DNA of 64,000 bases from Treponematales bacterium (lineage in GTDB: Bacteria > Spirochaetota > Spirochaetia > Treponematales > JBGSOB01), in contig JBGSOB010000112.1 in the NCBI GenBank assembly GCA_041739325.1, forward strand, positions 5,597 through 69,596, written 5' to 3'. Below the pieces are notes generated by a model that searched no databases, was not told the DNA's origin, and worked only from the letters and a program-made list of their open reading frames with translations. Shown in pieces: positions 25,235 to 46,200 of this stretch (positions within the stretch are counted from its first letter, which is position 1; the number at the start of each line of letters is the position of its first letter). A program made the position numbers and the translations under genes.

Positions 25235-25246
25235 GGCATTGGCGCT

Positions 25247-28200
25247 TTAGTGCGCGGCCCCCTCATCGGCAATCTTGTATTTCACCTCTTCCTCGTCAAC
25301 GTTGACTTTAGAGAGGTCCTTGTGCTCCAGGCCGAGTAAGGATTGTATTTCCGCCAAATTTCTGGGGCAATAGGGGTCGTCGATCCTTCCCAGCACGGCG
25401 TAAATGCTTTGTGGCTCGCTCTTGCCCTTAACGACGATAGGCTTCATTTTTTCCATGCGGAAAACGCTTTTTACCAGGGTGTAGGTGTCTTGCGACACCA
25501 GAATATCCGTTCCAAAGGGCTTGTTGAGGGCTTCTATACGGGAGGCTAAATTGACGCTGTCTCCGATGACGGTGTATTCCATCCTTTCGTTGGAACCGAT
25601 CTGCCCCGCAATAACCGGGCCGGAATTGAGGCCGCAGCCGATGCGGATGATGGGGCTGCGCGGACCGCCGCGGTCCAGGTTGAACTCAATAAGTTCCTTG
25701 CGCATCATCAAGGCCGCGTTGACCGCGCTCTCAGCGTCGCTTACGCCTTCAATGGGCGGCACGCCCCAGACGGCCATGATGGCATCGCCTATGTATTTAT
25801 CCACCACGCCGCCGGTGGCATTGACGCATTTGACCATGCGCGTCATGTATTTATTGAGGAAGTCAACAACTTCTTCCGGCTCCAGCCGCTCGGAGATGGA
25901 AGTGAAGCCGCGAATGTCGGAGAAGAAAATGGTGGCGTGTTTGCGCTCCCCGCCGAGTTTCAAGGTGCCACGTTGGGCTTGCTCAGCAATTTCTTTATTG
26001 ACGAACTTGCCGAATGTGTCTTTGAGCCTTTCGCGCTCCGCTAAGCCGTGGCCCATGTTCACGAAGGTTTCGGTAAGCAGGCCTAATTCATCGTGGGCCC
26101 GGGCGCGTAAACTCAGCTCGAATTGCCCGGCTTCAATGCGCCTGGCGGCTCCGACGAGGGCGCGTATGGGGACGACCAAGGACTTGGAATAAAAATAAAC
26201 CAACAGGATGGCAGCGGCAATAACCATGATGGCAAGCAGAATATTATTCCTCTGCACATTCGCGACAGCCTCAAAGGCGCGTTTTTCCTCTACGGCGGAA
26301 AGTACCCATGCCCCAATCCCCTGGAGTTTGGAATAGGTGGCGCTATAGTAGAGGCCGGATTCGTCGCGATAGCGGAACTGCCCGATATTGGCTTGGCTCT
26401 TCTGCAGATCCTTGAAGAAATCCAGGTTGGAGACGTCTTGGGCTTGGATAACGACGTTTGAATCCGGATGGGCTATGATCTCTCCCTCAAGGGAGATGAG
26501 TTGCTGTTGCCGAATGGATTTTTTCTGGGCCTCAACCGATTCTTGGAGTCTTTCCCGTGAGTTGAAGATGACAACCAAGGCTCCCGCTTGGCCCTCAACT
26601 TGGTAACTCCACGCGGCTAAGACGCAGGGCTCCCTAAACAATACGGATATGTTCATGCATAAAGCATCGCCGCGAACGGCGGCTTCGATCTCTTTCCTTC
26701 TTCCTGCTATCGCAGTCATGATGGTTTTTTCATCCATGCGGAAATCCGCTAACGCATTTATATTCGCGAGTTCGGCTATGGCTTCACCTCCACCCTCCGG
26801 ATAGGCCGCCGCGAAGAGGACTTCGTTTTCTCCCTGGTATAGCTCGGCCTTGAGGGCCGTCAGGGCATTTTGATCTAAGCCTCGGGATCGAGAGATGTAT
26901 CCTTGAATAAGCCGGTATGCCTTGTCTGAAACCGCGATAAAGTCATATTCGAACTTTTGCCTGATTACTTGGGAAATTTGTAAGCTTGCCTCGGCGACTT
27001 GATTCCTGATCTCTTGGCGGAAGAAATATGATGCCAGGGCAATCATCGTCCCTAGCGCCACCAAGATCAACAAGGAGATAATGCTCATCATCTTGACGGA
27101 AATGGGAAGCCGTATCCGCATATCGTGGGTTATTTCTATCCGCGCTTCCTTAACGGATCCCCTTGTTTTGCTTTCTCGGTGATCCGCCTCATGGCTATAA
27201 TCAACTCCCGGGGCGGAAAAAGAAGACGCCTGACTGTAATCATCATGCGCCGAATGCGCTTCCGAGCCTTCTTGTGTCCGGTAATCATGATCCTCGGCTG
27301 TGGATCCGAGAAGGGCCGCCATCTCATCTGACCCGTTTTCTCTTTCCGCCTCGATTTTGGCGCCCGATCCTCCAGCCTTAGCCTCGCCTTGGATATCCTC
27401 AATGCGGAAATCATCAATATGGAATCCTTCGTCCTCCGTCTCATGCATCTCCGGGAAAACGATTCCGGCGGGGAGCTCACTGTCGAGGGCGTTCGGATCC
27501 GGCCGCGCGGCTTGCGGCATCGCTTTCTGTTTGGCTTCGGCGACTGTTGGGGGATTGTGCGTCCTTACTTCTTGTTGAGGCGGTGAAACCAGTTCGCTTG
27601 GCGTCGCCTGCTTAGGCGCCTGTATCTTCTGTGTCGGCTCGGGAACCGCTGATGGCGCTTCCTCATTTATGGCAAGGTAATCCTCATCTTCCTCTGTGGC
27701 GTAGAGGCTGAAGGCTTTGGCCTCGGGCCCGCCGGCTCCAGGTTCCGGAAGAAAGGCTTTGTCCGGCGAGGATATAATCTTGAGCAGCCTTGAAGCGGGT
27801 AAGCGGCTTGCGAGGGCGATGCTCGGATCTTCCCGCGTGAGGACGATCCCATAGCAGGGCAGGATGGCATTGAGCCCATTGAGGGCTGCGTAACTCATTG
27901 AGATGCCGCCATATCTGAGGAGTTCCCCGCGGGCTATGAGGCTTACCAGGGCGTTAGCTGTCTCCGCAAGGCCAAGGGGGCCGTTCTCCCCCATGGATCC
28001 GGCGTCAAAATAAACCAGTGAAAGCCATTTACCCTCGGCGCGTGAGTCGTCCGCCCGTTTTTTTTGAACGCTGAGCCTGAAGATCCCTTCTTTATTTTCG
28101 CCTAAAAAGCGGCCATCGAAGGGCACGAGCCGTACGCGGCTTTCTCCCGCTAGCCGGGAGCAGATGTCTTGAACGGATACCTCACGACTAATCGGCGGGC

Positions 28201-28594
28201 GAAGCACCCTTCCGGAGGGCCTAAGCATTTCCCCATATCCGGGGAGGAGTTCTAATGCCTGGGCGCTTTGACGGATAAGGCTAGAGGCCTCCCGTATATC
28301 TTCCTCAAGTCCATCTACTTCCCCATTGGCCGCTTCGAGGAAGGCTGCGCGCAAGCTGGCGGCCAAGCAACGAAGCCGTGTATGGGCTATCAAACCAGAG
28401 ATTATTGCCAAGCGGTTAGAGAGCCTCACGCCCGCGCGTAGGACCTCGTGACTCAGCCTTGTGCTTATAATCCCGCTTCCTGAAGCCCTAGGCGGCAGAG
28501 ATATCCCAACCAGGGCTTCAATTTCTGAAGCGCAGGAAGCGAGAAGCGACTTGGCCTCGGCTATGAGCGAGGAATAGGTGACAGTCATGGGCAT
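25247..28594 (-). CDS. Large sensor adenylate/guanylate cyclase (cytoplasmic N-region, 2 TM flanking an extracytoplasmic sensor, HAMP, class III cyclase)
   Basis: Motifs are TM1 (MMSIISLLILVALGTMIALASYFF), TM2 (ILLAIMVIAAAILLVYFY) and HAMP (PIRALVGAARRIEAGQFEL...DELGLLTETFVNM). The cyclase core has ATIFFSDIRGFTSISE, KYIGDAIMAVWG, IGCGLNSGPVIAGQIGS and YTVIGDSVNLASRIE. Confidence 0.8.
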   Translation of the reverse strand: MPMTVTYSSLIAEAKSLLASCASEIEALVGISLPPRASGSGIISTRLSHEVLRAGVRLSNRLAIISGLIAHTRLRCLAASLRAAFLEAANGEVDGLEEDIREASSLIRQSAQALELLPGYGEMLRPSGRVLRPPISREVSVQDICSRLAGESRVRLVPFDGRFLGENKEGIFRLSVQKKRADDSRAEGKWLSLVYFDAGSMGENGPLGLAETANALVSLIARGELLRYGGISMSYAALNGLNAILPCYGIVLTREDPSIALASRLPASRLLKIISSPDKAFLPEPGAGGPEAKAFSLYATEEDEDYLAINEEAPSAVPEPTQKIQAPKQATPSELVSPPQQEVRTHNPPTVAEAKQKAMPQAARPDPNALDSELPAGIVFPEMHETEDEGFHIDDFRIEDIQGEAKAGGSGAKIEAERENGSDEMAALLGSTAEDHDYRTQEGSEAHSAHDDYSQASSFSAPGVDYSHEADHRESKTRGSVKEARIEITHDMRIRLPISVKMMSIISLLILVALGTMIALASYFFRQEIRNQVAEASLQISQVIRQKFEYDFIAVSDKAYRLIQGYISRSRGLDQNALTALKAELYQGENEVLFAAAYPEGGGEAIAELANINALADFRMDEKTIMTAIAGRRKEIEAAVRGDALCMNISVLFREPCVLAAWSYQVEGQAGALVVIFNSRERLQESVEAQKKSIRQQQLISLEGEIIAHPDSNVVIQAQDVSNLDFFKDLQKSQANIGQFRYRDESGLYYSATYSKLQGIGAWVLSAVEEKRAFEAVANVQRNNILLAIMVIAAAILLVYFYSKSLVVPIRALVGAARRIEAGQFELSLRARAHDELGLLTETFVNMGHGLAERERLKDTFGKFVNKEIAEQAQRGTLKLGGERKHATIFFSDIRGFTSISERLEPEEVVDFLNKYMTRMVKCVNATGGVVDKYIGDAIMAVWGVPPIEGVSDAESAVNAALMMRKELIEFNLDRGGPRSPIIRIGCGLNSGPVIAGQIGSNERMEYTVIGDSVNLASRIEALNKPFGTDILVSQDTYTLVKSVFRMEKMKPIVVKGKSEPQSIYAVLGRIDDPYCPRNLAEIQSLLGLEHKDLSKVNVDEEEVKYKIADEGAAH

Positions 28595-29420: not shown

Positions 29421-31190
29421 ATGCCCAAGATCAAGCTCTGCGACCTCGTGCTCCGCGACGCCCACCAGTCCCTGTTGGCGACGCGCATGGTGACCAAGGA
29501 CATGTTGCCCATCTGCCCGAGCCTGGACAAGGTCGGCTATTTCGCCCTGGAAGCCTGGGGCGGGGCTACCTTCGACTCCTGCATCCGCTTTTTAAATGAA
29601 GATCCCTGGGAACGCCTGCGCCAACTCAAGAAGGCCCTGCCCAAGACCCCCATCATGATGCTCCTGCGCGGGCAGAACCTTTTGGGCTACCGCCATTACG
29701 CCGATGACGTAGTGGAGAAGTTCGTGGAGGCGGCCGCTAAGAACGGCGTGGACGTTTTCCGTATCTTTGACGCCATGAACGACCCGCGCAACTTTAAAAA
29801 GGCCACCGAGGCCGCTAAAAAGACCGGTAAGCACGTTCAGGCCACTATCTCCTTCGCCACTACCCCCTTTCATACCATTCCTGCCTACGTGGAGCTGGGC
29901 AAGGCCCTCGCCGGCGAGGGCGCGGATTCACTGGCTATCAAGGACATGGCCGGGCTCTTAAAGCCTTTTGAGGCCTATGAATTGGTGCGGGCCCTTAAAA
30001 AAGAAGTCGGTATCCCGGTTGAAATCCATTCCCACGCCACTACCGGCATGTCGGTTGCCACCCTGGTCAAGGCAGCCGAAGCGGGGGCCGATATCCTGGA
30101 CACATGCATCTCCTCCATGGCCATGGGTACGAGCCACTCGCCCACCGAGACCCTCGTGGAGATCTTTAAGGGCACGGAATTTGATACCGGCCTTGACGTC
30201 AATCTCCTGGTGGATATTGCCGCCTACTTCCGCGATGTCCGCAAAAAGTACCGCGCCTTCGAGTCTTCCTTCTTAGGCGCCGATACCCGCATCCTCATAG
30301 CTCAGGTTCCCGGTGGAATGCTTTCCAATATGGAGAGCCAACTCAAGGAGCAGGGAGCGGGAGATAAAATCGACGCCGTGCTCAAAGAGATACCCATCGT
30401 CCAAAAGGATGCGGGCTTCATTCCCCTGGTCACGCCAACCTCGCAAATCGTGGGGACCCAGGCCGTCTTTAACGTCCTCTTCGGTCGCTATGAAAAGCTC
30501 TCTGCCGAATTCCGCGACCTTTTAGTGGGAAAATACGGCAAGAGCCCGGCGCCCTGCAACGTGGATCTGGTTAAAAAGGCGCTCTCTGAGTCCAAGATGG
30601 ACGCGGCTATCACCCACAGGCCGGCCGACGACATCCCCAATGAGTTTGCCAAGCTTGAGGAAGAGACGAAAAAGATACTAGGAAGCTCAACGGTCGCGGT
30701 CGAGGATGTCCTTACCTATGCCATGTTCCCCAAGGTTGCCCCCGAGTTCTTTGCCAACCGCGCCAAGGGGCCGGTAAACTTCGACACGCCCAAAGAAGAA
30801 GCCTCCGCGCCCTCTTCCGCCCCCGTCGCTGCCGCCAACCAAGCCGCCGCTTCCTACATCGTAACCGTCAACGGCACGGATTATGACGTAATGGTGAGGC
30901 CGGAAGGCACGGCCGTTCTCGCTTCTGCCCCGGCTAAGGTGGCCAAAGCAGCTGTCGCAGCTGTTGCGGCTCCCCAGGGCGGTAGCCCGGTCAAGTCTCC
31001 CGTAGCCGGTTCCCTGGTGCGCAATAGCTGCGCTGAGGGGGAGGCTGTAGCTTTAGGTCAAACAATCCTCATCGTAGAGTCTATGAAGATGGAGCTTGAG
31101 ATAAAGAGCCCTGCCGCTGGCAAGGTGCACTACATCCTATCCAAGGGAGCAAAGATCAGCTCTCAACAGCTCCTGGCGGAAATTCTCTAG
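29421..31190 (+). CDS. oadA: Oxaloacetate decarboxylase alpha subunit / biotin-dependent carboxyltransferase (5S) with C-terminal biotinyl domain
   Basis: The N-terminal LRDAHQSL...EAWGGATFD, then HSHATTGM, an Ala/Pro-rich linker, and the biotin attachment motif VESMKMELEI are all present. Confidence 0.85.
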   Translation: MPKIKLCDLVLRDAHQSLLATRMVTKDMLPICPSLDKVGYFALEAWGGATFDSCIRFLNEDPWERLRQLKKALPKTPIMMLLRGQNLLGYRHYADDVVEKFVEAAAKNGVDVFRIFDAMNDPRNFKKATEAAKKTGKHVQATISFATTPFHTIPAYVELGKALAGEGADSLAIKDMAGLLKPFEAYELVRALKKEVGIPVEIHSHATTGMSVATLVKAAEAGADILDTCISSMAMGTSHSPTETLVEIFKGTEFDTGLDVNLLVDIAAYFRDVRKKYRAFESSFLGADTRILIAQVPGGMLSNMESQLKEQGAGDKIDAVLKEIPIVQKDAGFIPLVTPTSQIVGTQAVFNVLFGRYEKLSAEFRDLLVGKYGKSPAPCNVDLVKKALSESKMDAAITHRPADDIPNEFAKLEEETKKILGSSTVAVEDVLTYAMFPKVAPEFFANRAKGPVNFDTPKEEASAPSSAPVAAANQAAASYIVTVNGTDYDVMVRPEGTAVLASAPAKVAKAAVAAVAAPQGGSPVKSPVAGSLVRNSCAEGEAVALGQTILIVESMKMELEIKSPAAGKVHYILSKGAKISSQQLLAEIL

Positions 31191-31338: not shown

Positions 31339-32832
31339 CTACTTGCCGGAGGACTCCATGCGGAAGCCGGAGTCGAACTGATTGATGATCTTTTGAAGTT
31401 GGGTGGCGTTGGTTATGGAGAAATCCAAGAGGGCCTGGGCGTCTATCTGTTCAAAGCTCATCTCCCCAACCTCGAACTCCGTCATGGCGTTGGCAAGGTA
31501 GACGGCGTTGACAACCTCCTTGTGCTCTTGAGAAAGAGCCGGTTCGTGGTGGAAGCGTATGGCCGCAATGAGTGACTCGGGGAAGTTCCACTTTTCCGCT
31601 ATGCGCGCCCCGATCTCGGCGTGGTTCATGCCGGCGGAAAGCTCCTCGAAGAGCTGGTCGGGAATGCCCTTGTGCACGCAGAAGTCGCGGATGTGCTTGA
31701 GCAGGTCCGGGTGCACGGAGGAGAACACGATCTTTCCCATATCGTGGAGCATTCCTCCCACGTAGACGTCGTCAAGCAGCTCGCGATTCTGGGGCTTGAA
31801 GTTGCGGGTAAGGTTGTAGGCGTAAAAGGCGGTGCGGTAGGAGTGCTGCCAGAGCTCTCGCTTTTCCGGGCTGTCCTCCCCGCCTAAGATCTTTTGCGTC
31901 CCATAGGAATATAAAAGGTTGCGGATGCCGCGTAGCCCAACTAGCTTTACCGCTTCAGGGATGTTGTCCACCTTTTTTGCCAACATGAACTGGGCGGAAT
32001 TGACCATGCGCAAAAGGTCCGCCGTCATGGCGGGGTCCATGGCAATCTGCCTGGCAATGTCCACCATCTGGCTCTTGGGGTCGGTAATCAGGCGCTGGAT
32101 GCTGGAGACGTTTTCCGGGAACTGCGGCAGGCGGTTTATCTGCCGCACGATCTCGTCTGCCAAGAGGGAGAGGTTCTCTATCTTGGCGGCGTTCACCGGA
32201 ATGGTTATGCGGGCAATGGTTTCCCCGCCCTCGGCCCAGATGTCAAAGCATTCTTCGTCCAAGCCTATCTTTTTGAGCATGAGGATAAGGATGACTAGCC
32301 CCAAGCCCGCGCCCTCGGTGGGGTCTACCACCTGGCCCATCACTTCTTCCAAGGAAGAGTAGGTGCGCGCGCGGGCAAGCTTGTCGTGGATGCGGATATA
32401 TTCTTTCTGATTGATCTCAACGTTGTTGCGGACCTCAAGCAGGATGACCGAGCCCTTAGCCTGAAAAAGCAGTTTGATGTAGAAGCCGGCTTCTTTCTGC
32501 AGGGTCAGATAATGGTTTATGTTATCCAGGGTTTCCTGCTTGAAATACTTCATCCCCTCTTCGTATTCCTCGGAGTCGTCTATGTTGAGGTTACGTTCTT
32601 GGAAATAGACCCGCTTGGTGTTGGCTTTTTTGGCGTTTACCGCCAGCTCGCGCAGGCAGTAGATCAGATAGTCCTTGAGCTTCTTCTGGCCAATCTCCGA
32701 AAGGAAGACTTCCAGCACTTGCTCCATGTACATTTCTATCTCGTGGGGCAGGGTATAGGTAGTGATGGTGAGCGGGATGGCGTTATGGGCCGCCTTTTTT
32801 ATCTTGAGCGCGTCTACCACGAGTTCCGGCAT
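31339..32832 (-). CDS. GHKL ATPase-like domain fused to an HDOD domain
   Basis: The N-terminal half has an N-box-like ELAVNAKKAN and a G-box-like DPTEGAGLGLVIL. The C-terminal half has HDOD motifs (LPQFPENVSSIQRLITDP...DIARQIAMDPAMTADLLRMVNSAQF, GGMLHDMGKIV, HAEIGARIAEKWNFP). Confidence 0.75.
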   Translation of the reverse strand: MPELVVDALKIKKAAHNAIPLTITTYTLPHEIEMYMEQVLEVFLSEIGQKKLKDYLIYCLRELAVNAKKANTKRVYFQERNLNIDDSEEYEEGMKYFKQETLDNINHYLTLQKEAGFYIKLLFQAKGSVILLEVRNNVEINQKEYIRIHDKLARARTYSSLEEVMGQVVDPTEGAGLGLVILILMLKKIGLDEECFDIWAEGGETIARITIPVNAAKIENLSLLADEIVRQINRLPQFPENVSSIQRLITDPKSQMVDIARQIAMDPAMTADLLRMVNSAQFMLAKKVDNIPEAVKLVGLRGIRNLLYSYGTQKILGGEDSPEKRELWQHSYRTAFYAYNLTRNFKPQNRELLDDVYVGGMLHDMGKIVFSSVHPDLLKHIRDFCVHKGIPDQLFEELSAGMNHAEIGARIAEKWNFPESLIAAIRFHHEPALSQEHKEVVNAVYLANAMTEFEVGEMSFEQIDAQALLDFSITNATQLQKIINQFDSGFRMESSGK

Positions 32833-32901
32833 GATCTTCCCCTTATCCGATGTTTTTCAAGTATAGTACCATAAAGCCCGACGGCGCAACCTTAGCCGCC
32901 C

Positions 32902-35325
32902 CTAAGCGCGCGAATAGCCCCGCATCAGCTCCGCCATAGCCCGTAACCTCTCCCTCACCTTGCCGTTAAAGCTATCCGCGGGGAAATCCCCCCCGGCGGC
33001 GCTTTTACCGGGGTTTTCGCCGGTGAGGACAAAGATGCCCTCGTCAATGCTGGAAACCGCCCAGATATGGAAACGCCCGGCGGCCACCGCGTCTTGGATT
33101 TCCCGCGAGAGTGTGAGATTGACAACGTTTTGCCGGGGAATCATAACCCCCTGGCTGCTGGTGAAGCCCACTTTTTTGCAAATCTGGTAAAACCCCTCTA
33201 TTTTTTCAGAAACCCCGCCCACTGGCTGTATCTACCCCATCTGGTTGACGGAACCGGTAACGGCCACGTCTTGACGCAGAGGCACCCCGGCAATGGCGGA
33301 AAGCAGGGCGTAAACCGCTGTGGAAGAGGCGGAATCTCCCTCAACCGCGGTATAGGATTGCTCAAAGCAGATGCTGGCGGTGATGGAGAGGGGGAAGGCC
33401 GAGGAATATCGACTGCGCAAAAAGCCTTCCACAATGAGAACGGCCTTATCGTAGATTTCGCCTGAAAGGCCGGATTCGCCCTCAATGTTGATAACCCCGG
33501 AGGCTCCCGGTGATACCTGGGCCGAAATGACCGCCGGCATGCCGAAAGCGTAGAATCCGCGGTCGTGGACGGCAAGGCCGTTCACCCTTCCTAGGGCGGT
33601 TCCGGAGACGGCAAGCACGATCTCCCCGGAGAGAATCATCTGACCCATCTTTTCTTCGGGCAGGGAGAAGAGATAGGCGCGGTTTTCCACCGCCTGCCGC
33701 ACTTCCAGCTCGCTAATGCTTGCCGCGCCGGAGCGGCGGGCGGCGTAGTCGGACTCCCTTAACAGGTCGGCTATCCGCGAAAGACGGGTTGAGAGGCGGT
33801 CACGGTATTCGGAGAGCCGCACCCCCTGCTCTATAACGGCGGCCATGCCGGAGTGGGTCAGTTGCTTGAGCCCTTCCTCCTGAACGATTTTTTTCATAAA
33901 AGAGAGGTAGTTTTTTGTGGATCCTGGGCTACGCGCCATGGAGGAGTCGAACTCGGCGCAGACCTTGAAGAGCTTTTGGAAGTCTTGGTCGGCCTGGTAG
34001 AGGAAGTCGTAGGAGGATTCGTTGCCTATCATGATGATCTTGACGTCGATATCGATGGCCTCCGGCTTGATGATGGCCGGGGCCGGGCCGAAGGGGCCGG
34101 ACTGTGGTTGGATCTCAACCTTGCCCGCCTGGAGGATGCGCTTCAAATAAGCCCAGGCCTCCTCTTCCTGCACGACATCCTCAGCCTTGAGGATGAGGTA
34201 GCCGCCGCAGGCGCGCAGGAGTGAACCGGAGCGGATGCGCAGGTAGGCGGGGTAGGGGTCTTCGCTCTCCTCGGCTTGATACTCGATGGATCCAAAGAGG
34301 TTGACTTGGTTGGGAACGTCCTCGAAGACTACCGGGGTGCGGTCCTGGTCCGAGTTGTCCACGATAATGTTTATTCCATAGCGGGAGAAGAAGGGGCGGC
34401 CCTTGGGCCCGGCTTCAAGCTCATCCTGGCTCTCGGAAAAGGTCCGCGAATGGGAGAGGATATCGCGCTCCAAGTCCCGCACCCAGCCCTTGAGTGCTTC
34501 TAAGGAATGGCGGGAGTAGAGGTAGTCGACCTCGGACTGGACCCTGGGGCGGATAAGCTCGATGCGCGCCTTTTCCACCTTGTCTTCCAAGGAGAGCCGG
34601 GCTTGGCGCAGCTCGTCGAAAATCCCTTTGAGCCTGTCCATGTGGGCGTAGTATGCCGAGCGCTTGGTTTCCCATTCGGCTTGGGTCATGGCGCCGGATT
34701 CGACTAGGGTCTTAAGATCGTCAAAGGAGGATTCCTCCCCGTCTTTAAGGGGCAGGATATCGGTGCTGCGCCCCTCCTCCGGCCCCACTTGAACGATGCG
34801 GAAGCCCTCACGTTCTAGCTCTAGCTCGAACTCGCTCACCAAGCGGTTTTCCTTGTCTTCCACCTCCTTGAGGTAGGAGCTCTCCCTGCGGCGGAAGTCC
34901 GGGCTCTCCGCCAGGCGCCTGGCTATGCCCTTGATGTTCTCAACCAGGCGGTGCAGGTCTTTCTTAAAGCGTCGCGCTTGGCCGCGCGGGAAGCGTAGCA
35001 GTTTGGGGTTTTGCGGATGGCGGAAGTCGCAGAGATAGGCGAGGTCGGAGAGCGAATCCGCGCTCGCGCTCTTTTGGCGCAGGATGTTGAGCACTGCCGT
35101 GCGCCTGCCGGTTCCCGGGGCGCCGGAAACGAAGATATGGTAGCCGCGCGCTTTTATGTCGGTGCCCATCTGCAGGGCGGCGAAGGCCCGCGGTTGAACG
35201 ATGACGATCTCCGGTTCGCAGTCGCGGTCAAGCTCCGCTATCTCCGCCTCGGTAAGCGAATACTCGATGTCGGCGGCCTTGAGCTCAAAATCGGCATTGT
35301 CCATAGCGGCCCCTTTCTTGTTCAT
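32902..35325 (-). pseudogene. Lon-like ATP-dependent protease (COG1067/LonB-YcbZ type) interrupted by one in-frame TAG at 33232-33234
   Basis: Motifs are Walker A (GAPGTGRRT) and the catalytic Ser (EGDSASS). The minus-strand reading is gtc aac cag atg ggg TAG ata cag cca gtg ggc ggg gtt tct gaa aaa, which translates as VNQMG*IQPVGGVSEK. The two track ORFs (33232..35325 and 32902..33222) are in the same frame, and the second carries the catalytic-Lys motif GGVSEKIEGF. Confidence 0.7.
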
Positions 35326-35327
35326 GT

Positions 35328-37670
35328 TTATTTTGAGTGCTCCATCAGGGTTGATACCGGCACGATCTCGTAGCCCTCGCTGATAAGGGCGTTGATGAGG
35401 ATGTCAAGTCGATTGTAGAGATAGTCTCCCCGGCCCCCGGCTGGGATTCCCATGCGCAGGGCAATAATAGAGCCGGGTTGTTTGCGCTCCATCACCCGCT
35501 CCACGATTCCGGCCGCGTCCAGGTACATGCCTGGGAAGCGGTACTGCTCCTGGGACGCTACCCAGTCCAGCGGGTCTACGTCGCGGCCCACATAGGCGTA
35601 GCCCAGGCTCTTGGCCGCCTGCAGCATCATTGAGTTGATGGAGTAGTGCGGTGCATGCCAGATGGCGGAAAGCTCGCGGCCGCAGACGGCAAAGAAATCG
35701 TCCTCGTTGCGGGCAAGGCCGCGGCGGATAAACTCGGCGTCTACGGTAAAGTTGCCGTCCGTGAGGTTCCAGTTGGCAAAGAACATCGAGCCCAGCTCCA
35801 TGCCGGACTCCGCAAGATCCTTGACGGCCCCCGGGTAGCGGCGTATGAACTCGCCGTTGAGGAAGAATGTCCCCTTTATGCCGTAGTCCTTGAGGACGTT
35901 GAGCGATGTCATGAGCCCCTCGTCCCCATCGTAGAGGTCGAATACTAGGGCCACCTCCCGCCGCCGGATGCGTGAGCCGTGGTCGAACACGTCGGGCACC
36001 CGCTCTTCGTCCTTGAGGGGGAAGGGTGCGTAGCGTTTGGAGGGGGGCAGGACAAGGGAGCTCGTTTTGAGGGTTTTAATGGCCCGCACCATGACGGCAT
36101 TCTTATAGGAGCCGGCTTGAACCTCGTCGGTGAAGACGCGGTAGTTGGCGGAGAAGCTGGATGCCGGTAGGGGCGCGTAGACCATCGCGTCATCCCAGAG
36201 CCCCGCCTGGTTGAGTGCGTAGGCCTTGCCGCCCGTTTTGACTATAGCCGAGCCCGATGCCGGCGACCAGCCGGCGGATTCAGCTTGAGAAAGGGCAAGC
36301 AGTTCCCGTTTGCCGGTGGAAAGGTCTATAAGCTCGGTGCTTTGCTCCCCGGCTAGGATGATCTGGCTCGAATTGCGCCATAAAAGCCGAATCGGCGAGC
36401 TGGCGTCCAGGCTTTGCTTGAGGGAAAAATCGTCGTAGGAGAGGATGCGCAGGGCATCCGCGGATGCCACCGCGAAGAGTTTTCCGTCCGGGGAAAGGGC
36501 TATGTCGCGCACCCCGTCTAAGTCCTGCACCTTCGCTTCCTGCCGCAGGGCCGGCAAATTCTTGGGGCCGGAAGCGTCAGCTGGGGGCTTGGTCTCGGCA
36601 ATGAGGGGGCGGGCGAATTCCGGGTCGGCCACGCGGAAGGCGCGCATCCGTCGCTCCCCATTTTGCAATAGGGTGGCCAGAATGGTGATCGGTCCCCCGA
36701 CCGGCCAAATGACGCGGTTGACCAGGGTATTCGAGGGCAGGTAGAGGTAGGGCATCATCTCTGGGTCAAGGCTGCTGCGGTCGTCGTTCTTAACCTCGTA
36801 GATAAAGATGGAACGCGTGTTTTTGACTAAGAGGATGGAGCGCCCGCTGGGCGATATCTCAAAGCTGTCAAAGTTTGGGTCAAAGGCAAAGGGCACTTCT
36901 CCCACGATGCTTCCCGTTGATAGCAGTGACGAGTAGAGGGTGCGGGTAAAGAATTCCCTGGGGTCGGAGCGGAAGAGCTGTCTGCCCTGTATGGTAAAGA
37001 GGCTGCCGTTGGGGCTCCAGCGGGCGTTTGCCGCCTGCCCCGGGCCGAGGTCTCGGAAGCGCTCGTCCGGGATGCGTTTACCGCGCAGTTGCTCTACGGA
37101 GAAGTAGTAGAGGCGCCCCCCACTGGCATAGACGAAGAAATTGGAGTCCGGGGACCAGAGGGCGGGGAAGGAGCCTAAGAGGTAGCCTAAGCGCTGGGAT
37201 ACGATGGTTTCCACCCCGCTTTGGGCGTCATGGAGTACAAGGCGGCCATAGGCGGACTTGAGGGGTTGGATGGAGAGGATGTAGCGGCCGTCAGGGGAGG
37301 CCTGGATGGGAATGAGCTTTCCCGCCTGGACCTGGCTGCCTGAAACGAAGGAGGGAAAGCCCTTCACCGGCTTGAATCCGTGCAAATCCGTTCCGCTGGA
37401 GCGGAAGAGCCCGTAGCGGTTCTGGATTTGGAGGGAGCGGCCTTCGTCTAGGCACTGGATCTCCTCCGGGAAGAAGGTGAGCTGCTCTATGGGGCCGTCG
37501 GGCACCTTTGCCTGAAAGAGGCTGGCGTAGAGACTTCCGCCCGGCAAGGCCGTTTTTGCCTGGAAGAGGAGCTTATCGTCCTGGGCAAGATCCAGGCCGA
37601 AGAAGCTGACCTCGGCGGCCAGGGGGAAGAGGAGCAAGGATGCCAAGAGGGCTGCACAGCGTGTTTTCAT
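35328..37670 (-). CDS. Exported beta-propeller (TolB/WD40-like) protein with C-terminal NodB-type polysaccharide deacetylase domain
   Basis: The ATG at 37670 gives signal peptide MKTRCAALLASLLLFPLAAE. Repeated SPDG/SPNG/SPSG turns are typical of TolB-like blades. The C-terminus ALVFDLYDGDEGLMTSLNVLKDYGIKGTFFLNGEFIRRYP...GSMFF is NodB-like. Confidence 0.7.
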   Translation of the reverse strand: MKTRCAALLASLLLFPLAAEVSFFGLDLAQDDKLLFQAKTALPGGSLYASLFQAKVPDGPIEQLTFFPEEIQCLDEGRSLQIQNRYGLFRSSGTDLHGFKPVKGFPSFVSGSQVQAGKLIPIQASPDGRYILSIQPLKSAYGRLVLHDAQSGVETIVSQRLGYLLGSFPALWSPDSNFFVYASGGRLYYFSVEQLRGKRIPDERFRDLGPGQAANARWSPNGSLFTIQGRQLFRSDPREFFTRTLYSSLLSTGSIVGEVPFAFDPNFDSFEISPSGRSILLVKNTRSIFIYEVKNDDRSSLDPEMMPYLYLPSNTLVNRVIWPVGGPITILATLLQNGERRMRAFRVADPEFARPLIAETKPPADASGPKNLPALRQEAKVQDLDGVRDIALSPDGKLFAVASADALRILSYDDFSLKQSLDASSPIRLLWRNSSQIILAGEQSTELIDLSTGKRELLALSQAESAGWSPASGSAIVKTGGKAYALNQAGLWDDAMVYAPLPASSFSANYRVFTDEVQAGSYKNAVMVRAIKTLKTSSLVLPPSKRYAPFPLKDEERVPDVFDHGSRIRRREVALVFDLYDGDEGLMTSLNVLKDYGIKGTFFLNGEFIRRYPGAVKDLAESGMELGSMFFANWNLTDGNFTVDAEFIRRGLARNEDDFFAVCGRELSAIWHAPHYSINSMMLQAAKSLGYAYVGRDVDPLDWVASQEQYRFPGMYLDAAGIVERVMERKQPGSIIALRMGIPAGGRGDYLYNRLDILINALISEGYEIVPVSTLMEHSK

Positions 37671-37763
37671 AGGCCACCGTCCGGATAAGGGGTACATCTT
37701 ATTAATTTTCGGCATAAAGCCCCTGACTCTGGAGGAGAAGCCTCAGGCAAGCCCACGGCCTTT

Positions 37764-38831
37764 TTAGAGAAAACGACGCGACGCGCATATCTCCACCCCC
37801 TCGAATTCCCCTGCCGCGCTGAAGTGATCCGTGAGTCGGGGCGGTATCGCCGCCATCGCCCGGGCCGAAACGCTTATGCGCTCCGCCTGTGCCTTTTTGG
37901 TTCCAAGGTGGAAAATAAAGTTTACGTCCTCTGATACGACCGTCCCCGTGCGGCCCGGGGCCTGATAGGGGGTCTTGCCGTAGTGGAGGGCGAATACCAG
38001 GGAGAGGGGGCTTTCCAAGCCCAGCTGTTCATAGCCCAAGAGGGGGGTGGAGAGGAGGGCGTGGAGGCAGGCCTCAATCACAAGCCGCGCCCTTCCCTCC
38101 GGCGGGGGGATGAGGAAGAGAACGGCGGAATCAGCTTGCATCCATGCCTGGCCGTCGGTATCGGCGAATTCCTTGCGCAGGTGTGTCATCAAGGCTTCGC
38201 GAAGAGAGGCAAAGCGCTTTTCGCCTATCTTGGCCTTAAGGGCTGATGAGTTGGCGATGGCGGCGTAGAGGAAGAAGAACTCGCGGGTTTCTCCCGCCTT
38301 GATGCCCTCCCAGCCGGGAAAGGGCTCTCGTTGAATGCTTGGGCAATCCGCTACGGCATCGGCGCTTCCTCTTCCCCTTGTTTCTGCCGTATTTTTAGGC
38401 AGGGACTTTGAATCCGAGCTCATTCTCGAATTCATAGCCTCAGGCGCCTGAGCCCCTCTCGTCAGGAATTCCGCGTAGGAGAGCAACTGCTTAAGGCGGC
38501 TGTGGGGAATGCCGTTTTTAAGCAGGGCTGGGCCTATATAGTCGCAGGCCCCCTCATAAAAGAGCTGGGCGGGGTCGGGATTACTGCCCTTGGGGTCTAT
38601 GCAGCCCCAGGGGGTCCCCGGGTGGATTTTTTTTATCCGGGTAAGGGCCTTTTTTATCTCTCCCTGGTCTAGGTCTCGGCAATCCAGGTAGACGATATCG
38701 GCTTCCGGGGCAGCGCGCTTGGAAAGTTCCGCCCGCGGGAGGATGGATTCTTGCGCCGCCTTGGCCGAGGCGGCCTCGGCCGCCAGGGTCAGTCTGAAGC
38801 GTGCTTTGTCGCTATAGACGAGTATCCTCAT
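37764..38831 (-). CDS. Receiver-like N-domain plus degenerate class III cyclase-homology domain (C2-like)
   Basis: MRILVYSD...IVYLDCRD... suggests a receiver-like fold. The C-terminal FFFLYAAIANSS / AWMQADSAVLF / LVFALHYGKT / VVSEDVNFIFHLG follows the cyclase-fold motif order, but the first metal Asp is Ala and the Arg is His. Confidence 0.5.
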   Translation of the reverse strand: MRILVYSDKARFRLTLAAEAASAKAAQESILPRAELSKRAAPEADIVYLDCRDLDQGEIKKALTRIKKIHPGTPWGCIDPKGSNPDPAQLFYEGACDYIGPALLKNGIPHSRLKQLLSYAEFLTRGAQAPEAMNSRMSSDSKSLPKNTAETRGRGSADAVADCPSIQREPFPGWEGIKAGETREFFFLYAAIANSSALKAKIGEKRFASLREALMTHLRKEFADTDGQAWMQADSAVLFLIPPPEGRARLVIEACLHALLSTPLLGYEQLGLESPLSLVFALHYGKTPYQAPGRTGTVVSEDVNFIFHLGTKKAQAERISVSARAMAAIPPRLTDHFSAAGEFEGVEICASRRFL

Positions 38832-39754
38832 CTGCCCTCCACGCGGATGGCGTAGGATCTGAGCTTAATGGAGCCCCCGCTTTTTTCCGGCCCAAAGCGG
38901 TCCTGTATCACCTTGTCCACCCCAAGGAAGAGGTTGGGTGATACGGAAAAGCTGTCTACGTCCGTGTATTTTGACTCTAGGTCGCCCAGCTCCCGCACTA
39001 CCTCCGCCTTTTTAATGGCTAGGCTGTCTTCTGAGTAGCGCAGGGGGCCGCAGTGACCGGCTAGGCGAATGCGGATGGGGGTGGAGAGGGGGTTGGCCAC
39101 GAGGTTGTAGAAATAAAGCTCCTGAAGGATTTCCATCCCGGCAAGGAGTGCCGACCTTTCCTTTTGATTAAAGAGGAATGCGCAGAGACAGCCGTCTCCC
39201 TCCCAGGCCCACACCCGGCCGCTACGCTTGAGCACCGCTTTGGAAACGATGTCCCTCAATTGGGCGTAGGCGGAGTTGATTTTTGCTGCGGGGTTTGACT
39301 TCACAAGGCTTGAGTTTTTGGCTATATCAAGGCGTAGGAAGGCAAAGTTATTTTCCTCACCCTCCTCCAACCGGCCCCAGTTTGGGCTTACCCTTTCCGC
39401 GGAATTCTCCATGAAGAGGCCGGTGCCGCGGTCAAAGCAGTAGCCTTCGGCCATGATGGCCTTTACAAGGTCTATGAGGTGGAGAATGCGATACTCGCGG
39501 CCCATGTAGCCCTTGGCGTCCACCCCAATCAAGGTTTCGACGAAGGCAAGGAAGCGCGAGCGCGCGATGATGTCCCGCACTACTTGTTCCGCCACTACTT
39601 GAGCCGTGATGGGAATATTCTCGGGTATGCCTGTCGCTTGATGGATGTTATAGCCGGGCAGGATCATCCTTGCCAGGCGGACCATCATGTCGGTGCCTAG
39701 AGACTCATAGAGGCAGCGGCAGGTTAGGGTGATGATTGCGTTGCGTATTTTCAT
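38828..39754 (-). CDS. Degenerate class III cyclase-homology domain protein (C1-like) with unassigned N-domain
   Basis: I chose the ATG at 39754 because the longer track ORF would run through the divergent transporter promoter and start. The C-terminal FAFLRLDIAKNSS / VWAWEGDGCLCAF / IRIRLAGHCGPL / AEVVRELGDLES follows the cyclase motif order, with both Asp retained and Asn/Arg replaced. Confidence 0.5.
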   Translation of the reverse strand: MKIRNAIITLTCRCLYESLGTDMMVRLARMILPGYNIHQATGIPENIPITAQVVAEQVVRDIIARSRFLAFVETLIGVDAKGYMGREYRILHLIDLVKAIMAEGYCFDRGTGLFMENSAERVSPNWGRLEEGEENNFAFLRLDIAKNSSLVKSNPAAKINSAYAQLRDIVSKAVLKRSGRVWAWEGDGCLCAFLFNQKERSALLAGMEILQELYFYNLVANPLSTPIRIRLAGHCGPLRYSEDSLAIKKAEVVRELGDLESKYTDVDSFSVSPNLFLGVDKVIQDRFGPEKSGGSIKLRSYAIRVEGR

Positions 39755-39834
39755 CCTAGACCCCCATTTTACATGAAAAGGGGAAAATTCGCCAGTGCGG
39801 ACTCTGGCTTTGGCCCCATCTTCAGGCCCTGCCA

Positions 39835-39863
39835 TTGACGGAACGGCCTCGGGACAGCATAAT
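39835..39863 (+). promoter_or_regulatory. Sigma70-type promoter for the amino-acid ABC transporter operon
   Basis: It reads TTGACG (39835-39840), a 17-nt spacer, then CATAAT (39858-39863), about 34 nt upstream of the ATG at 39897. Confidence 0.45.
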
Positions 39864-39896
39864 TTGGCTTCAATATTGACCCTTGAAGGAGTACTT

Positions 39897-40643
39897 ATGT
39901 CTCGGAAGTTCGCATTCGCGCTTTCCGCTCTTGTCGTGGCCCTCGCTCTCCTCTCCGGCTGCGCCCCCTCCAAAAAGATCGTCGTGGCTACGGACGCCAC
40001 CTGGCCTCCCATGGAGTTCGTGAACGATCAGAAGGAGACCGTCGGTTTTGACATCGACCTCATCAAAGAGATCGCCAAGGAAGCCGGTTTTCAGGTTCAG
40101 ATCAAGAACGTCAACTGGGACGGTATCTTCGGTGGCCTTACCGGTGGCCAGTACGACGCCGTCATTTCCTCGGTAACCATAACCGAGGAGCGCAAAGCGG
40201 AGATGGATTTCTCCGACCCCTATATCAATGCCGGCCAGGTCCTCATCGTCCGCGCAGACGCCGCCGATTCCGTTCAGACTATAGCCGATTTAGCCGGCAA
40301 GAGCCTGGGAGCCCAGATAGGCACTACCGGGGCTATGGAAATCGAGAAGGTTGCCGCCGTCACCCTCAAGACCTACGACGAGCTCGGCTTTGCCATTGAA
40401 GACCTTGCCAAGGGCCGCATCGAGGGCGTTGTCGCCGACACCCCCATCGCCGCCCAGTTCGTCCTGCAAAACGACACCTACAAGGACAGCCTCAAGATCG
40501 TCGGTCAGAGCTTTACCGACGAGTACTACGGTATTGCCGTCAAAAAGGGCAACGCCGCCGTTCTTGAGCTTATCAACACCGGCCTGCGCAAGGTCCTCGC
40601 CAGCAAGAAGAATGTTGAGCTTGAGGAAAAGTGGCTGAGGTAG
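39897..40643 (+). CDS. Polar amino-acid ABC transporter substrate-binding lipoprotein (family 3 SBP)
   Basis: GAAGGA precedes the ATG at 39897. The signal peptide has lipobox LLSGC. Motifs are VVATDATWPPMEF, GFDIDL and WDGIFGGLTGGQYDAVISSVTIT.ER. Confidence 0.85.
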   Translation: MSRKFAFALSALVVALALLSGCAPSKKIVVATDATWPPMEFVNDQKETVGFDIDLIKEIAKEAGFQVQIKNVNWDGIFGGLTGGQYDAVISSVTITEERKAEMDFSDPYINAGQVLIVRADAADSVQTIADLAGKSLGAQIGTTGAMEIEKVAAVTLKTYDELGFAIEDLAKGRIEGVVADTPIAAQFVLQNDTYKDSLKIVGQSFTDEYYGIAVKKGNAAVLELINTGLRKVLASKKNVELEEKWLR

Positions 40644-42228: not shown

Positions 42229-44445
42229 TTAACCGAAGAGGCTCAAACGCACACGCTTTACGTTGGATATCCTCTCTACCGGAATCTTCATGAACTCCCC
42301 CTCCTCATCCGGCCCATCAACCGTTTGGCAGTCCAAGAGGAGGCCGCTTGCCGTTTTGTGCAGGGAAAGGGGGCGGACCGAGCGCCTGTCCGGGTTGCCC
42401 TGGGCATCGCGGTAGAGGATCACTAAGAGCCAGTCGCTGCGGTGCAGGGAGTGCTCTATGAGCTTCACCTTGCCCAGGTAATCAAGCCCGCCGGCTTCGC
42501 TCTTTTCATAGCGCACTGAATCCGGCATGAGACCGGCCTCACCAATGATGAGCTTGAGGCGTATCCTGTCCGCCAGGGATTCTTTTATTTCCTTGGGATA
42601 GGAGGAGGCGGCGAGGCTGTCCTCAAGTTCCTTCCTGATTTTGAGCGGGTCGAGGGTAGGCTCTTGCCGCCGTCTTTCCCAGTCTGTCTCGGCAATGCTC
42701 AGCTCGCGGGTATCGAACTGCGGGGCTAGGTTCAGGGCCTGGCCGGGGCTTGCTATCGCGTCGGATCCGGGAAGGCCTTCCGAGGAACCGCTTGCGTCCA
42801 TAATGCGCGGGGGCGTTTCCATGCCCGCGCGCTGTAGGGCTTCTTCCGCTTCCTCGGCCCCGGCAAAGCGGGTGAGGTAGGCGCCGGGGGCAATCTTTTC
42901 AACCAGGTACTCGCGCATTACCGGGGAGTGTTCCATGAATTTCGCAAGTCTATCGTCGCCGCAGAGGACAATGCCGGTGACGATATTGACCGAGTGGTGC
43001 TCTCGCTCCCAGGCTTCCAGGGAGTAGGAGAGGTTTTGCGGTAGGGGCTTCCCGGACATCCGCGTGAGGTGGGCTTCCAAGGCCTCCCGGCTTAAGCCTA
43101 GGCGGTAGGCCCGCGCGGCGCTCTTGCGGCTGAGGCTAAATTCAAGGGCTGAGCCCAGGCGTTCGATGTCAAGGCACAGGGCTAGGATGAGGCCGTCGCT
43201 ACTGGGCAAACCTGGTCCAGTGAAGACGTGAAAATCAGCCCCCACCCGTATCCGCCCCGATTCCGCCGTTGTCGCTTCAACTGCTGGCCTGAGGCAGCCG
43301 CCTTTGCCGTCCGTTTTAAGGCAACCTGCCTTGAGCATGCCGGAAAGCAGGCGTGATGCGTCCGCTCCGCGGGCGCGCCTACTCATGTGTATTTGGGCAG
43401 ACATGATAAAACGGGCAAGGGCTTTCGGACCGAAGGCCCTTCCGGCGGGGATGATGCGCTCGGCTAAGCGGATTAGGTCGGCGGCATCGTTTTGGGCGCT
43501 TGCCGCAAGGTAGGGGGCGGGGTGGATGGGCTCGACGGCTCCGGCCGCGCCTGAGGCGCCCGGAACGGCGCTCGGAGCGGGAAGCCCCGTATCCATGGCC
43601 TTGAGGGTTGGGGACCCGGCGAGTATGGCCGCCGCCTTCGCGCGGGAGTAGGCCTCGAAGCGGAAAAAGCTTTCGGCTTCAGCCTTTTGCACGCAAAACT
43701 TCCCCCCGACAAAGCGGAAGAGCCGGGCGGACTCAAGGAAAGCGGCCGCCTGGTGGCAGTCCCAGTGTGCGGGAAAGCGGGATTGGAATTCTCGAACCGC
43801 TTTAATGGGAAGCTTGAGCTCCCCATCTGCCTTGCGGCGCGGCGCGTGGTCGTCCTTCAGAAAAAAGGAGATGAGGGCGGCAATGGCCTCCGGGTCTAAG
43901 CGGTCAAGGCTGGGGAAAGCGCTGGAAGACTCTTCTTCCTCCACTTCGGATTTTTTTCCTAAAGTCGCGGCTGGCGGGAAAACGAGCTCCGGGTCGTAGA
44001 CCCTTAGGCGAAAGGCTTCGGCAAGGAGGGGGTTGAGGCGTATATAGCGTCTTCCTACGCCGGAGCGCTCAAAGGCGGCCCGCTCCTTGGCGTTCCGTCC
44101 CTGGCTGCCCGGCGCAGGGCCGGCGGATTCGTAGATGAGGAGCCTTTCCTCCAGGTTTACGATGCGCAAGAGGGTCTGCATCCTCTCCCCGCCAAGGAAT
44201 TCCGCTACATCGTCGCGAGTGGCTTGGGGCAGGATGATGAGGGCGCTTAAGACCTCGGCGTCAGAATCGTCAATGAGGGAGAGGATGCGCTCTATGGTTT
44301 CCGGCTTTTTTAAGAGGGATTCCAGCTTGTCTACCAGCTCGTGTTTGCGGTAAGGCGTGCGCACCTGGCCAAGGTAGACGCGCATGAGGTCAAGGAATGT
44401 TTCCGAAGGCAGTGAGTTTAGGGCTGCGCGCCAATCTTGTAGCAT
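42229..44445 (-). CDS. XPB-associated large protein (helicase-associated; C-terminal small beta-barrel-like segment), function unknown
   Basis: It starts 3 nt after the XPB stop on the same strand. At 738 aa it has no catalytic motif I can recognise. The family call rests on conserved adjacency to bacterial XPB homologues as I remember it. Confidence 0.45.
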   Translation of the reverse strand: MLQDWRAALNSLPSETFLDLMRVYLGQVRTPYRKHELVDKLESLLKKPETIERILSLIDDSDAEVLSALIILPQATRDDVAEFLGGERMQTLLRIVNLEERLLIYESAGPAPGSQGRNAKERAAFERSGVGRRYIRLNPLLAEAFRLRVYDPELVFPPAATLGKKSEVEEEESSSAFPSLDRLDPEAIAALISFFLKDDHAPRRKADGELKLPIKAVREFQSRFPAHWDCHQAAAFLESARLFRFVGGKFCVQKAEAESFFRFEAYSRAKAAAILAGSPTLKAMDTGLPAPSAVPGASGAAGAVEPIHPAPYLAASAQNDAADLIRLAERIIPAGRAFGPKALARFIMSAQIHMSRRARGADASRLLSGMLKAGCLKTDGKGGCLRPAVEATTAESGRIRVGADFHVFTGPGLPSSDGLILALCLDIERLGSALEFSLSRKSAARAYRLGLSREALEAHLTRMSGKPLPQNLSYSLEAWEREHHSVNIVTGIVLCGDDRLAKFMEHSPVMREYLVEKIAPGAYLTRFAGAEEAEEALQRAGMETPPRIMDASGSSEGLPGSDAIASPGQALNLAPQFDTRELSIAETDWERRRQEPTLDPLKIRKELEDSLAASSYPKEIKESLADRIRLKLIIGEAGLMPDSVRYEKSEAGGLDYLGKVKLIEHSLHRSDWLLVILYRDAQGNPDRRSVRPLSLHKTASGLLLDCQTVDGPDEEGEFMKIPVERISNVKRVRLSLFG

Positions 44446-44448
44446 GGT

Positions 44449-46200
44449 CTAGTACCCTCCTGAGGCGGCGGGGGCGGGGAGGCTGTCCTCGGGAGAACGG
44501 CGCTCTATTTCGTAGCGATAGCCTTGCTCGGCAAGGAATTTTTGACGGTTGACGGAAAACTCCTCTTCAACCGTCATCTCAGACACCAGGGTATAAAAAT
44601 ATGAGTTTATCTTTTTGGGCCGCAGGATACGCCCCAGGCGCTGGGCTTCTTCCTGCCGCGAGCCGAAGGAGCCAGATACCTGGATGGCTACCGAAGCGTC
44701 CGGCAGGTCTATGGCAAAATTGGCCACGCGGGATACTACCAAGAGCCGCAGCTCCCCGGAGCGGAAGGAGTCGTAGAGGGTCATGCGGTCGGTGCTTGCC
44801 ATCTTGCCGGTAATGAGGGGGGCCTTTAAGTGCTTGGCGATATCGGCCAATTGGCTTAAGTATTCGCCTATGACGAGTATGCCTTCGCCGCTATGGTGTT
44901 TTGCCAGCTCCTCCACTACGGCTATCTTGAGGGGGTTCTCCCCGGCAAGCCTTACCTTAGCCCGCTTTTCCGCGGCCGCGTATTCGTAGCCGCGCTGGTC
45001 CGAAAGGGGTATGCGGATCTCGCGGCAGAAGGCCTGGGCTATCCAGCCCTTTGCCTCCAGTTCCTTCCAAGGCACGTCGTAGCGCTTGGGTCCCACCAGG
45101 GCAAAGACCTCGGACTCCCGCCCGTCTTCGCGCACCAAGGTTGCCGTGAGCCCCAGGCGGCGAACGGCTTGGAGCTCCGCGGTAACGCGGAAAACAGGGG
45201 CCGGTAAAAGGTGGACCTCGTCATAGACGATCAAGCCCCAGGGTCGGGCCCTAAAGAGGGAGAAGTGGGGGTATTCGGCGTCGCGGTCCGGCCGCCAGAT
45301 GATGACCTGATAGGTGGCCACCGTTATGGGGCGTATTTCCTTGCGTTCGCCGGAGTACTCGCCCACCAAGGCCGGGTCTATGTCCGTCTTGTCCAAGAGC
45401 TCGGCTATCCACTGCCGTACCGCCTGGGAATTGGCGGTAAGGATGAGTACGTTGACCGAGAGCTCGGCCATGACCGCCATGCCGATAACCGTCTTGCCCG
45501 AGCCGCAGGGTAGAACGACAGTGCCGTAGCCTGTGCCCGGGGCCTTGTTGCCCACAAAGGAGCGCACGGCTTCCAGCTGGTAGGCGCGCAGGGAAAAATC
45601 GGCGCCGGAGCGGCAGCTATGGCGTAGGGCCAGGGGAAGGCTCTCACCCTCCAGGAGGGGGGCTTCGTCGCGGCAGGGGTAGAGGGCCTTCATAAGCTCC
45701 AGCTTTACCGTTCCCCGGTCAAGGAGGAGGAGGGAAAAACCTGAGTCTTCCTCAACGAGGTACTTCATCAGGCGCTTATTTCCGGCTAGCTCCAAGCGCA
45801 CCCGCCTATCGGCTACCTCTAGGCGCAACCTGGCTTGGGAGAGTTCAACTATAGCCGGCGCTTGGCCCTCAGCTTCATTCCCGCCAAGGGGCGTGTAGGC
45901 CTTCATGACAACCTTGCCAAAGCGGCCCATGGCGTCGCGCACCCAGCGGTACACGTTGGCCGGAACCTCATAGCGGGAATAGCGGCCCAAGATGGCGCAC
46001 ACGTCTTCAGGCCCCATGCCCGCCTGGGCGGCGTTCCACAGGCTTAGGGGAGAAAGGCTCCAGCTATGCATGTGTTCCGGCGACTTTTCCAGGGAGGCAA
46101 AGGGCAGGAGGGCATCCCGCGCCTGTTCAAAGAGGGGGGCGTGGGTGTCTAAGAGGAGTGTCGTATCGCTCTGAATGATGATCGGGCCGTCCGTTGGCAT
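44449..46200 (-). CDS. XPB/ERCC3-type SF2 DNA helicase
   Basis: Motifs are LRAYQLEAV, Walker A (LPCGSGKT), DEVH (VYDEVHLLPA), LGLTATLVRED and helicase C motifs (VGEYLSQL...; QVSGSFGSRQEEAQRLGRILR). Confidence 0.85.
   Translation of the reverse strand: MPTDGPIIIQSDTTLLLDTHAPLFEQARDALLPFASLEKSPEHMHSWSLSPLSLWNAAQAGMGPEDVCAILGRYSRYEVPANVYRWVRDAMGRFGKVVMKAYTPLGGNEAEGQAPAIVELSQARLRLEVADRRVRLELAGNKRLMKYLVEEDSGFSLLLLDRGTVKLELMKALYPCRDEAPLLEGESLPLALRHSCRSGADFSLRAYQLEAVRSFVGNKAPGTGYGTVVLPCGSGKTVIGMAVMAELSVNVLILTANSQAVRQWIAELLDKTDIDPALVGEYSGERKEIRPITVATYQVIIWRPDRDAEYPHFSLFRARPWGLIVYDEVHLLPAPVFRVTAELQAVRRLGLTATLVREDGRESEVFALVGPKRYDVPWKELEAKGWIAQAFCREIRIPLSDQRGYEYAAAEKRAKVRLAGENPLKIAVVEELAKHHSGEGILVIGEYLSQLADIAKHLKAPLITGKMASTDRMTLYDSFRSGELRLLVVSRVANFAIDLPDASVAIQVSGSFGSRQEEAQRLGRILRPKKINSYFYTLVSEMTVEEEFSVNRQKFLAEQGYRYEIERRSPEDSLPAPAASGGY

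Follow-up and report, generated by a model that had tools for sequence, protein, structure and literature searches.

LonC enzymes are the closest described relatives of the protein considered here. MtaLonC of Meiothermus taiwanensis and TTC1975 of Thermus thermophilus (PDB 4fw9/4fwd) carry non-canonical Walker motifs, lack ATPase activity and degrade unfolded substrates without ATP (PMC3391209; PMC13069640). In MtaLonC the Walker A-like motif reads GPPSLGKHE and the Walker B-like motif GYLILDA, and K625 has been named as the catalytic lysine (PMC3391209). For in-frame stops in bacterial genes, the nearest described systems are the nonsense pseudogenes and 'pseudo-pseudogenes' of Salmonella Typhi and Paratyphi A (Feng et al. 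2022, PMC9122581) and the conserved in-frame stops of prokaryotic genes, reported in bacteria under purifying selection (Belinky et al. 2021, PMC7918605). Bacterial nonsense pseudogenes usually originate by C>T/G>A changes (PMC9122581), and tRNA-Gln(CUG) is known from E. coli and Salmonella to misread UAG at a background level; in enterobacteria the residue so inserted is mainly Gln (PMC5289835; PMC9122581).

The locus studied here lies in a window of 64 kb, by which we mean the whole stretch of DNA that was analysed, and combines both subjects, a LonC-type gene and an in-frame TAG. On the minus strand, 35325..32902 translates in one frame into 807 sense positions and a terminal TAG, with a single internal stop at codon 698 (TAG, 33234..33232), no frameshift and no second internal stop. 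Around the stop, minus strand 33246..33199 reads GTC AAC CAG ATG GGG TAG ATA CAG CCA GTG GGC GGG GTT TCT GAA AAA, which translates as VNQMG*IQPVGGVSEK. The features of the locus are as follows.

31339..32832, minus strand: HDOD/HD-domain gene, the downstream context, 69 nt past the LonC terminator
32902..35325, minus strand: LonC-type (Lon-like, MEROPS S16) protease gene by frame, domains and structural matches, 807 sense codons with one interruption
32904..32902, minus strand: the LonC gene's own terminator TAG, from the translation
32905..33231, minus strand: the 109 sense codons past the stop, covering the last third of the S16 domain and the C-terminal tail, undecayed
33202..33204, minus strand: codon AAA of the catalytic Lys708, in GGVSEKIEGF, 10 codons past the stop
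33232..33234, minus strand: in-frame TAG at codon 698, by comparison with relatives an ancestral CAG (Gln); the changed base is 33234
33331..33333, minus strand: codon TCC of the catalytic Ser665, in VEGDSASS, upstream of the stop
34177..34203, minus strand: degenerate Walker B-like motif GYLILKAED, residues 375-383
35098..35124, minus strand: degenerate Walker A-like motif GAPGTGRRT, residues 68-76, with Arg for the P-loop Lys
35328..37715, minus strand: polysaccharide-deacetylase-domain gene, the upstream context, its TAA 2 nt before the LonC ATG

The internal TAG falls between the two catalytic residues, and the ORF listing consequently cuts the gene into a 697-aa ORF (33232..35325) and a 106-aa ORF that begins at a GTG at 33222, three codons past the TAG; both pieces are recorded as separate called proteins on the same NCBI contig of 73,283 bp, neither of them named. 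A sequence-only reading of this DNA had described the in-frame TAG at 33232-33234 and had placed the dyad Ser upstream of it and the dyad Lys 10 codons beyond, which the direct read, the one-frame translation and the positions of S665 and K708 bear out. The truncated product of 697 aa that it gave also stands, while its full-length product of about 806 aa has to be corrected to a conceptual 807 aa, and its downstream segment of 106 codons really comprises 109, since 106 is the count from the first GTG.

The assignment to LonC draws on several lines of evidence. Pfam returned LonC_helical, AAA_32 (LonB-like AAA), LonB_AAA-LID and Lon_C, and the match to PF20437 LonC_helical (E 6.4e-9, above its cut-off) marks the LonC-specific helical insertion in the AAA-like module; about 250 residues separate the Walker A-like from the Walker B-like motif. 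The NCBIfam matches to LonB and to Lon were both sub-threshold, and no transmembrane segment, a LonB trait, was found by a crude test in which the top 19-residue Kyte-Doolittle mean was 1.42 against a usual threshold of 1.6. The best solved relatives are MtaLonC and TTC1975 (4fwd, 4fw9 and others; E 1e-84), aligned without a break over residues 315-771, and the Lon_C match (residues 659-761) likewise crosses the stop, confirming the earlier proposal that both flanks belong to one gene in one frame. In this alignment Ser665 corresponds to MtaLonC S582, Lys708 to K625 and the stop to K615, and the dyad residues are 43 residues apart in both proteins. Ser665 and Lys708 are invariant in all 119 full-length relatives, which are about 800 aa long; in the present copy the S16 Ser-Lys dyad is complete only in conceptual read-through, as the stop parts the two residues.

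Compared with MtaLonC and TTC1975, the spirochaete protein thus has the same domain order (Walker A-like N-terminus, LonC helical insertion, AAA-like module with LID, S16), the same dyad spacing, degenerate Walker motifs and no membrane segment. It differs from MtaLonC in that identity is moderate and strong alignment is restricted to residues 315-771 of the spirochaete protein, and in that the spirochaete clade as a whole has Arg for the P-loop Lys; the stop between the dyad residues is unique to the present copy among the LonC relatives examined. Judged by these domains and motifs, the gene is of the LonC type and encodes a putatively ATP-independent Lon-like protease, for which proteolysis without ATP hydrolysis would be expected from its own motifs and from MtaLonC and TTC1975. 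The 'ATPase-only product' that the sequence-only reading had foreseen for the truncated protein is unsupported, because the protein is LonC-type and its Walker motifs are degenerate (GAPGTGRRT, and LILKAED in place of hhhhDE, so that the Walker B DE is replaced), and characterised LonC enzymes are without ATPase (PMC3391209). As a property of the clade in its own right, GxPGTGRR[TS], with Arg at the P-loop Lys position, is present in 119/119 full-length relatives and is accompanied by [R/K/Q]-A-E-D at the Walker B hhhhDE site, which together give the nucleotide site a non-canonical signature that is conserved in the clade and distinct from that of MtaLonC.

The genomic context of the gene is also conserved. 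The order polysaccharide deacetylase, LonC, HDOD/HD (31339-37715, minus strand) is kept in relatives that are 55-81% identical, namely L001 (7651-13599), L002, L003 and L005, and the locus is chromosomal, syntenic with relatives and not phage. The 2-nt gap suggests that deacetylase and LonC genes form an operon; we know of no functional link among the deacetylase, LonC and HDOD/HD genes. As many spirochaete lineages have kept LonC along with its neighbourhood, it is not obvious that losing the gene would be neutral.

Investigating the stop column in an alignment of 119 full-length homologues, we observed Gln in 108 and Asp in six, and otherwise single cases among the sequences tabulated. The flanking columns are nearly invariant, with N, Q and G before the stop and Q, P, V, G and G after it. 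In the three closest relatives, which come from metagenome contigs and share 78-81% amino-acid identity, the codon at the stop site is CAG (L001), CAA (L002) and CAG (L003). Because Gln occupies this column so widely and the closest relatives encode it by CAG/CAA/CAG, the parent codon is, on this comparison, CAG, lost by a single transition (C>T on the coding strand, G>A on the plus strand at 33234). This comparison with the codon of orthologues had been called for by the sequence-only reading, which had proposed that the stop replaces one sense codon by a one-base change, with CAG among the codons it listed.

The stop itself is confined to the present assembly. Among 240 family proteins collected, only the assembly's own ends at the codon-698 site; none of the other 239 ends there and none begins just after it. 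A search with the full-length protein for same-species sequence returned only the own truncated protein at 100%, followed by relatives at no more than 81%, and the C-terminal 186 aa, used as a query for same-species fragments, found 79% as the best match. A peptide-pattern scan of GTDB species representatives likewise gave no same-species sequence, and an exact DNA pattern that spanned the stop and left the mutated base as N had no match in GTDB representative genome contigs or JGI metagenome contigs. Looking up the 697-aa product by exact identity likewise returned no recorded contig.

Broken LonC genes of another kind do occur. On three long public contigs (165-586 kb), LonC homologues are called in two to four pieces (L004 2359-4591, L005 2179-4678, L006 2364-4879). 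These splits are frameshifts at positions unconnected with the codon-698 stop, the neighbouring HDOD gene of L004 is short as well, and the fragmentation most likely reflects long-read indel errors. The short LonC C-terminal fragments from these contigs were considered as recurrent splits and rejected, being multi-frameshift breaks elsewhere in the gene.

With respect to the age of the lesion, the 109 codons downstream of the stop differ from L001-L003 by a dN of 0.16-0.18, and dN/dS is approximately 0.08-0.11 against L002 and L003 (dS against L001 is saturated and gives no estimate), compared with a dN of 0.13-0.155 and a dN/dS of 0.10-0.15 for the same segment among intact relatives; as dS to the nearest comparator exceeds 1, this constraint test can exclude only an old pseudogene. 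Of the columns conserved at 95% or more in the family, 33/34 are kept downstream and 190/194 upstream, within the spread of intact homologues. This retention rules out a chance juxtaposition of two ORFs. Neither relaxed constraint nor further lesions were found downstream of the stop. Because the 109 downstream codons are undecayed, the stop, on this comparison, either arose very recently or is not real; the constraint downstream would look identical with a sequencing error or a functional gene.

Three candidates had been put forward by the sequence-only reading, namely a very recent nonsense mutation, an assembly or sequencing error and low-level readthrough, and this framing holds. What we see is either a recent knockout of the ordinary sort or an error in base calling, rather than a special decoding mechanism, and either way the event is of an already known kind. 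We lean towards a real, very recent nonsense mutation from CAG to TAG in a LonC-type gene, with the mutated base presumably a true feature of the organism's DNA. Bacterial genomes commonly contain nonsense pseudogenes; here the frame is intact on either side, the stop is single and one transition suffices, and the consensus is otherwise clean, whereas LonC genes damaged by assembly errors look different, being broken by frameshifts into two to four fragments beside damaged neighbours. The case resembles the Salmonella nonsense pseudogenes, where a single C>T/G>A change makes an in-frame UAG in a gene that is otherwise intact (PMC9122581).

For such a mutation, the transition at 33234 (G>A, plus strand) would have struck the conserved Gln698 codon, and release factor 1 would terminate at codon 698 as it does at the genome's many ordinary TAG ends. 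The resulting 697-aa product would keep the degenerate AAA-like module and Ser665 and would be without the part past the stop, which holds Lys708 and about 65 of the approximately 190 residues of the S16 domain. Because Lys708 and the last third of S16 are lost, this product would be proteolytically dead, and it is probably unstable or unable to assemble properly, which would make the gene a null allele or a young pseudogene. If the near-cognate tRNA-Gln(CUG) misreads UAG at some basal level, the residue put in would be precisely that of the wild type, but as an untuned background leak only.

It is possible, though we think it less likely, that the organism carries an intact gene with CAG, the coding-strand T being a sequencing or polishing error or a minority strain variant in a metagenome-assembled consensus. 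The gene is perfect but for one base and is conserved together with its neighbourhood, the constraint downstream cannot be told apart from that seen in intact relatives, the sequence apparently comes from an assembly of an uncultured organism with no same-species relative found, and LonC genes broken by assembly errors are present in public contigs, all of which would fit such an artefact. However, intact coding sequence fills about 95% of the 64 kb, and neither a second gene split by a stop nor an obvious frameshift was seen there, so that the LonC stop is the only lesion found in the window and the consensus looks accurate. Moreover, only about 3.5% of random substitutions in the LonC gene would create a stop, and real nonsense alleles per genome generally outnumber stop-creating consensus substitution errors in short-read assemblies.

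The inspection of the window also yielded observations on other genes. Other pairs of same-frame ORFs across one stop (44449, 25247, 17146, 51733, 52723) were rejected as split genes, being distinct adjacent genes with different domains; the pair at 44449 also has a Shine-Dalgarno sequence of its own. At 42229-46200 (minus strand), an XPB/ERCC3-like helicase of 583 aa is followed, after TAG and one codon, by a same-frame 738-aa Helicase_C_3 protein; an AGGAGG 9 nt before the ATG of the latter indicates a translationally coupled gene pair rather than readthrough, and the Helicase_C_3 partner gene is also present in the syntenic contig L001. At 22460-28594 (minus strand), a 1115-aa HAMP and adenylate/guanylate-cyclase protein and a same-frame 924-aa FecR-domain protein with an Ig-like region are separated by TAA and four codons, and were taken as separate genes on domain content alone. 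No Pfam match at E<=1e-5 was obtained for ORFs of 355, 394, 244 and 326 aa within 37764-40012 and 51001-52725; those of 355 and 394 aa are syntenic with two unannotated genes of L001 (315 and 328 aa). A solute-binding-protein gene that seemed to be missing in comparison with L001 is intact at 39795..40643.

Translational readthrough has to be weighed against the stop codon usage of the genome. Among bacterial stop codons TAG is as a rule the rarest. Of the 43 long ORFs in this window, 22 terminate in TAG, the LonC gene itself among them, 11 in TGA and ten in TAA; TAG is thus the commonest terminator (about 51%) in a genome of approximately 57% GC, an unusual usage (e.g., 32902-32904, 31339-31341 and 31188-31190). 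The internal stop has G at -1 and A at +4, and the tetranucleotide TAG-A is found at six of the 22 ordinary TAG terminators. The only tRNAs within the 64 kb are tRNA-Val(TAC) and tRNA-Ala(GGC), and neither a tRNA with a CUA anticodon, that is, a suppressor tRNA, nor any other Rfam element was found in the window. A stretch of 117 nt that takes in the stop and its 3' side is no more strongly folded than shuffled sequence (z = 0.29), and a promoter and terminator scan gave nothing notable.

A functional low-level readthrough, in which tRNA-Gln(CUG) misreads a real TAG and yields a little wild-type LonC beside the truncated product, lowering protease dosage, would be consistent with the intact downstream segment, with the conserved in-frame stops reported in bacteria (PMC7918605) and with Gln being both the ancestral residue here and the likeliest insertion when a stop is misread, as in the Salmonella pseudo-pseudogenes (PMC9122581). 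We nevertheless consider it very unlikely. That the residue matches Gln is trivial, since one transition separates CAG from TAG, and does not speak for design; the low dN/dS predates the mutation, and, unlike the cases of Belinky et al. 2021 (PMC7918605), which share with ours an in-frame stop and a downstream dN/dS far below 1 but rest on a stop conserved across genomes, the stop here is known from one assembly and is common to none of the 239 other family proteins. Because the genome ends half its genes with TAG, termination at TAG by RF1 is expected to be efficient, whereas UAG is a rare terminator in Salmonella (9%), where in addition C is enriched at both -1 and +4 of the UAG stops that are translated (PMC9122581); the G and A of the present stop match ordinary terminators of this genome. 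Together with the lack of a stimulatory 3' structure and of a suppressor tRNA in the window, these results leave the 'programmed' readthrough of the sequence-only reading without support. We give equally little credence to a dosage switch, which would be a 'pseudo-pseudogene' in a spirochaete, in which mostly Lys-less 697-aa fragment, possibly with the chaperone-like or substrate-binding activity described for MtaLonC, would be accompanied by a trace of wild-type protease from readthrough by near-cognate tRNA-Gln. If the stop were read through, the product beyond residue 697 would yield the tryptic peptide QDVAVTGSVNQMGQIQPVGGVSEK.

The use of TAG as a sense codon, genome-wide or element-specific (TAG=Gln as in genetic code 15, or pyrrolysine), would explain a TAG at a conserved Gln column but is effectively refuted by the terminator usage, in agreement with the earlier judgement that reassignment is unlikely since TAG ends many genes of the window; in addition, this is the only in-gene TAG found in the 64 kb, the window has no CUA-anticodon tRNA, the context is chromosomal and syntenic rather than phage, and relatives have Gln, not Lys or Pyl, at the position. 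A deliberately split protease, whose active site would be rebuilt from the 697-aa product and a separately started 106-aa fragment, is very improbable: although a GTG stands three codons past the stop and gene callers emit the 106-aa ORF, no Shine-Dalgarno lies at a usable distance from GTG 33222 (only GGGG 12 nt upstream), no relative is split at the codon-698 site, and the break interrupts a domain that is continuous, separating a strand from the Lys-bearing helix.

In conclusion, the significance of this finding is small and at most concerns annotation, as the locus should be described as a single LonC gene with an interruption, marked as pseudogene or suspected error, and not as the proteins of 697 aa and 106 aa that gene callers emit. 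Only if a full-length protein were detected would it provide an example of a UAG-to-Gln leak outside enterobacteria. If the allele is real, this lineage would just have lost a protease that is otherwise conserved, together with its neighbourhood, across many spirochaete lineages.
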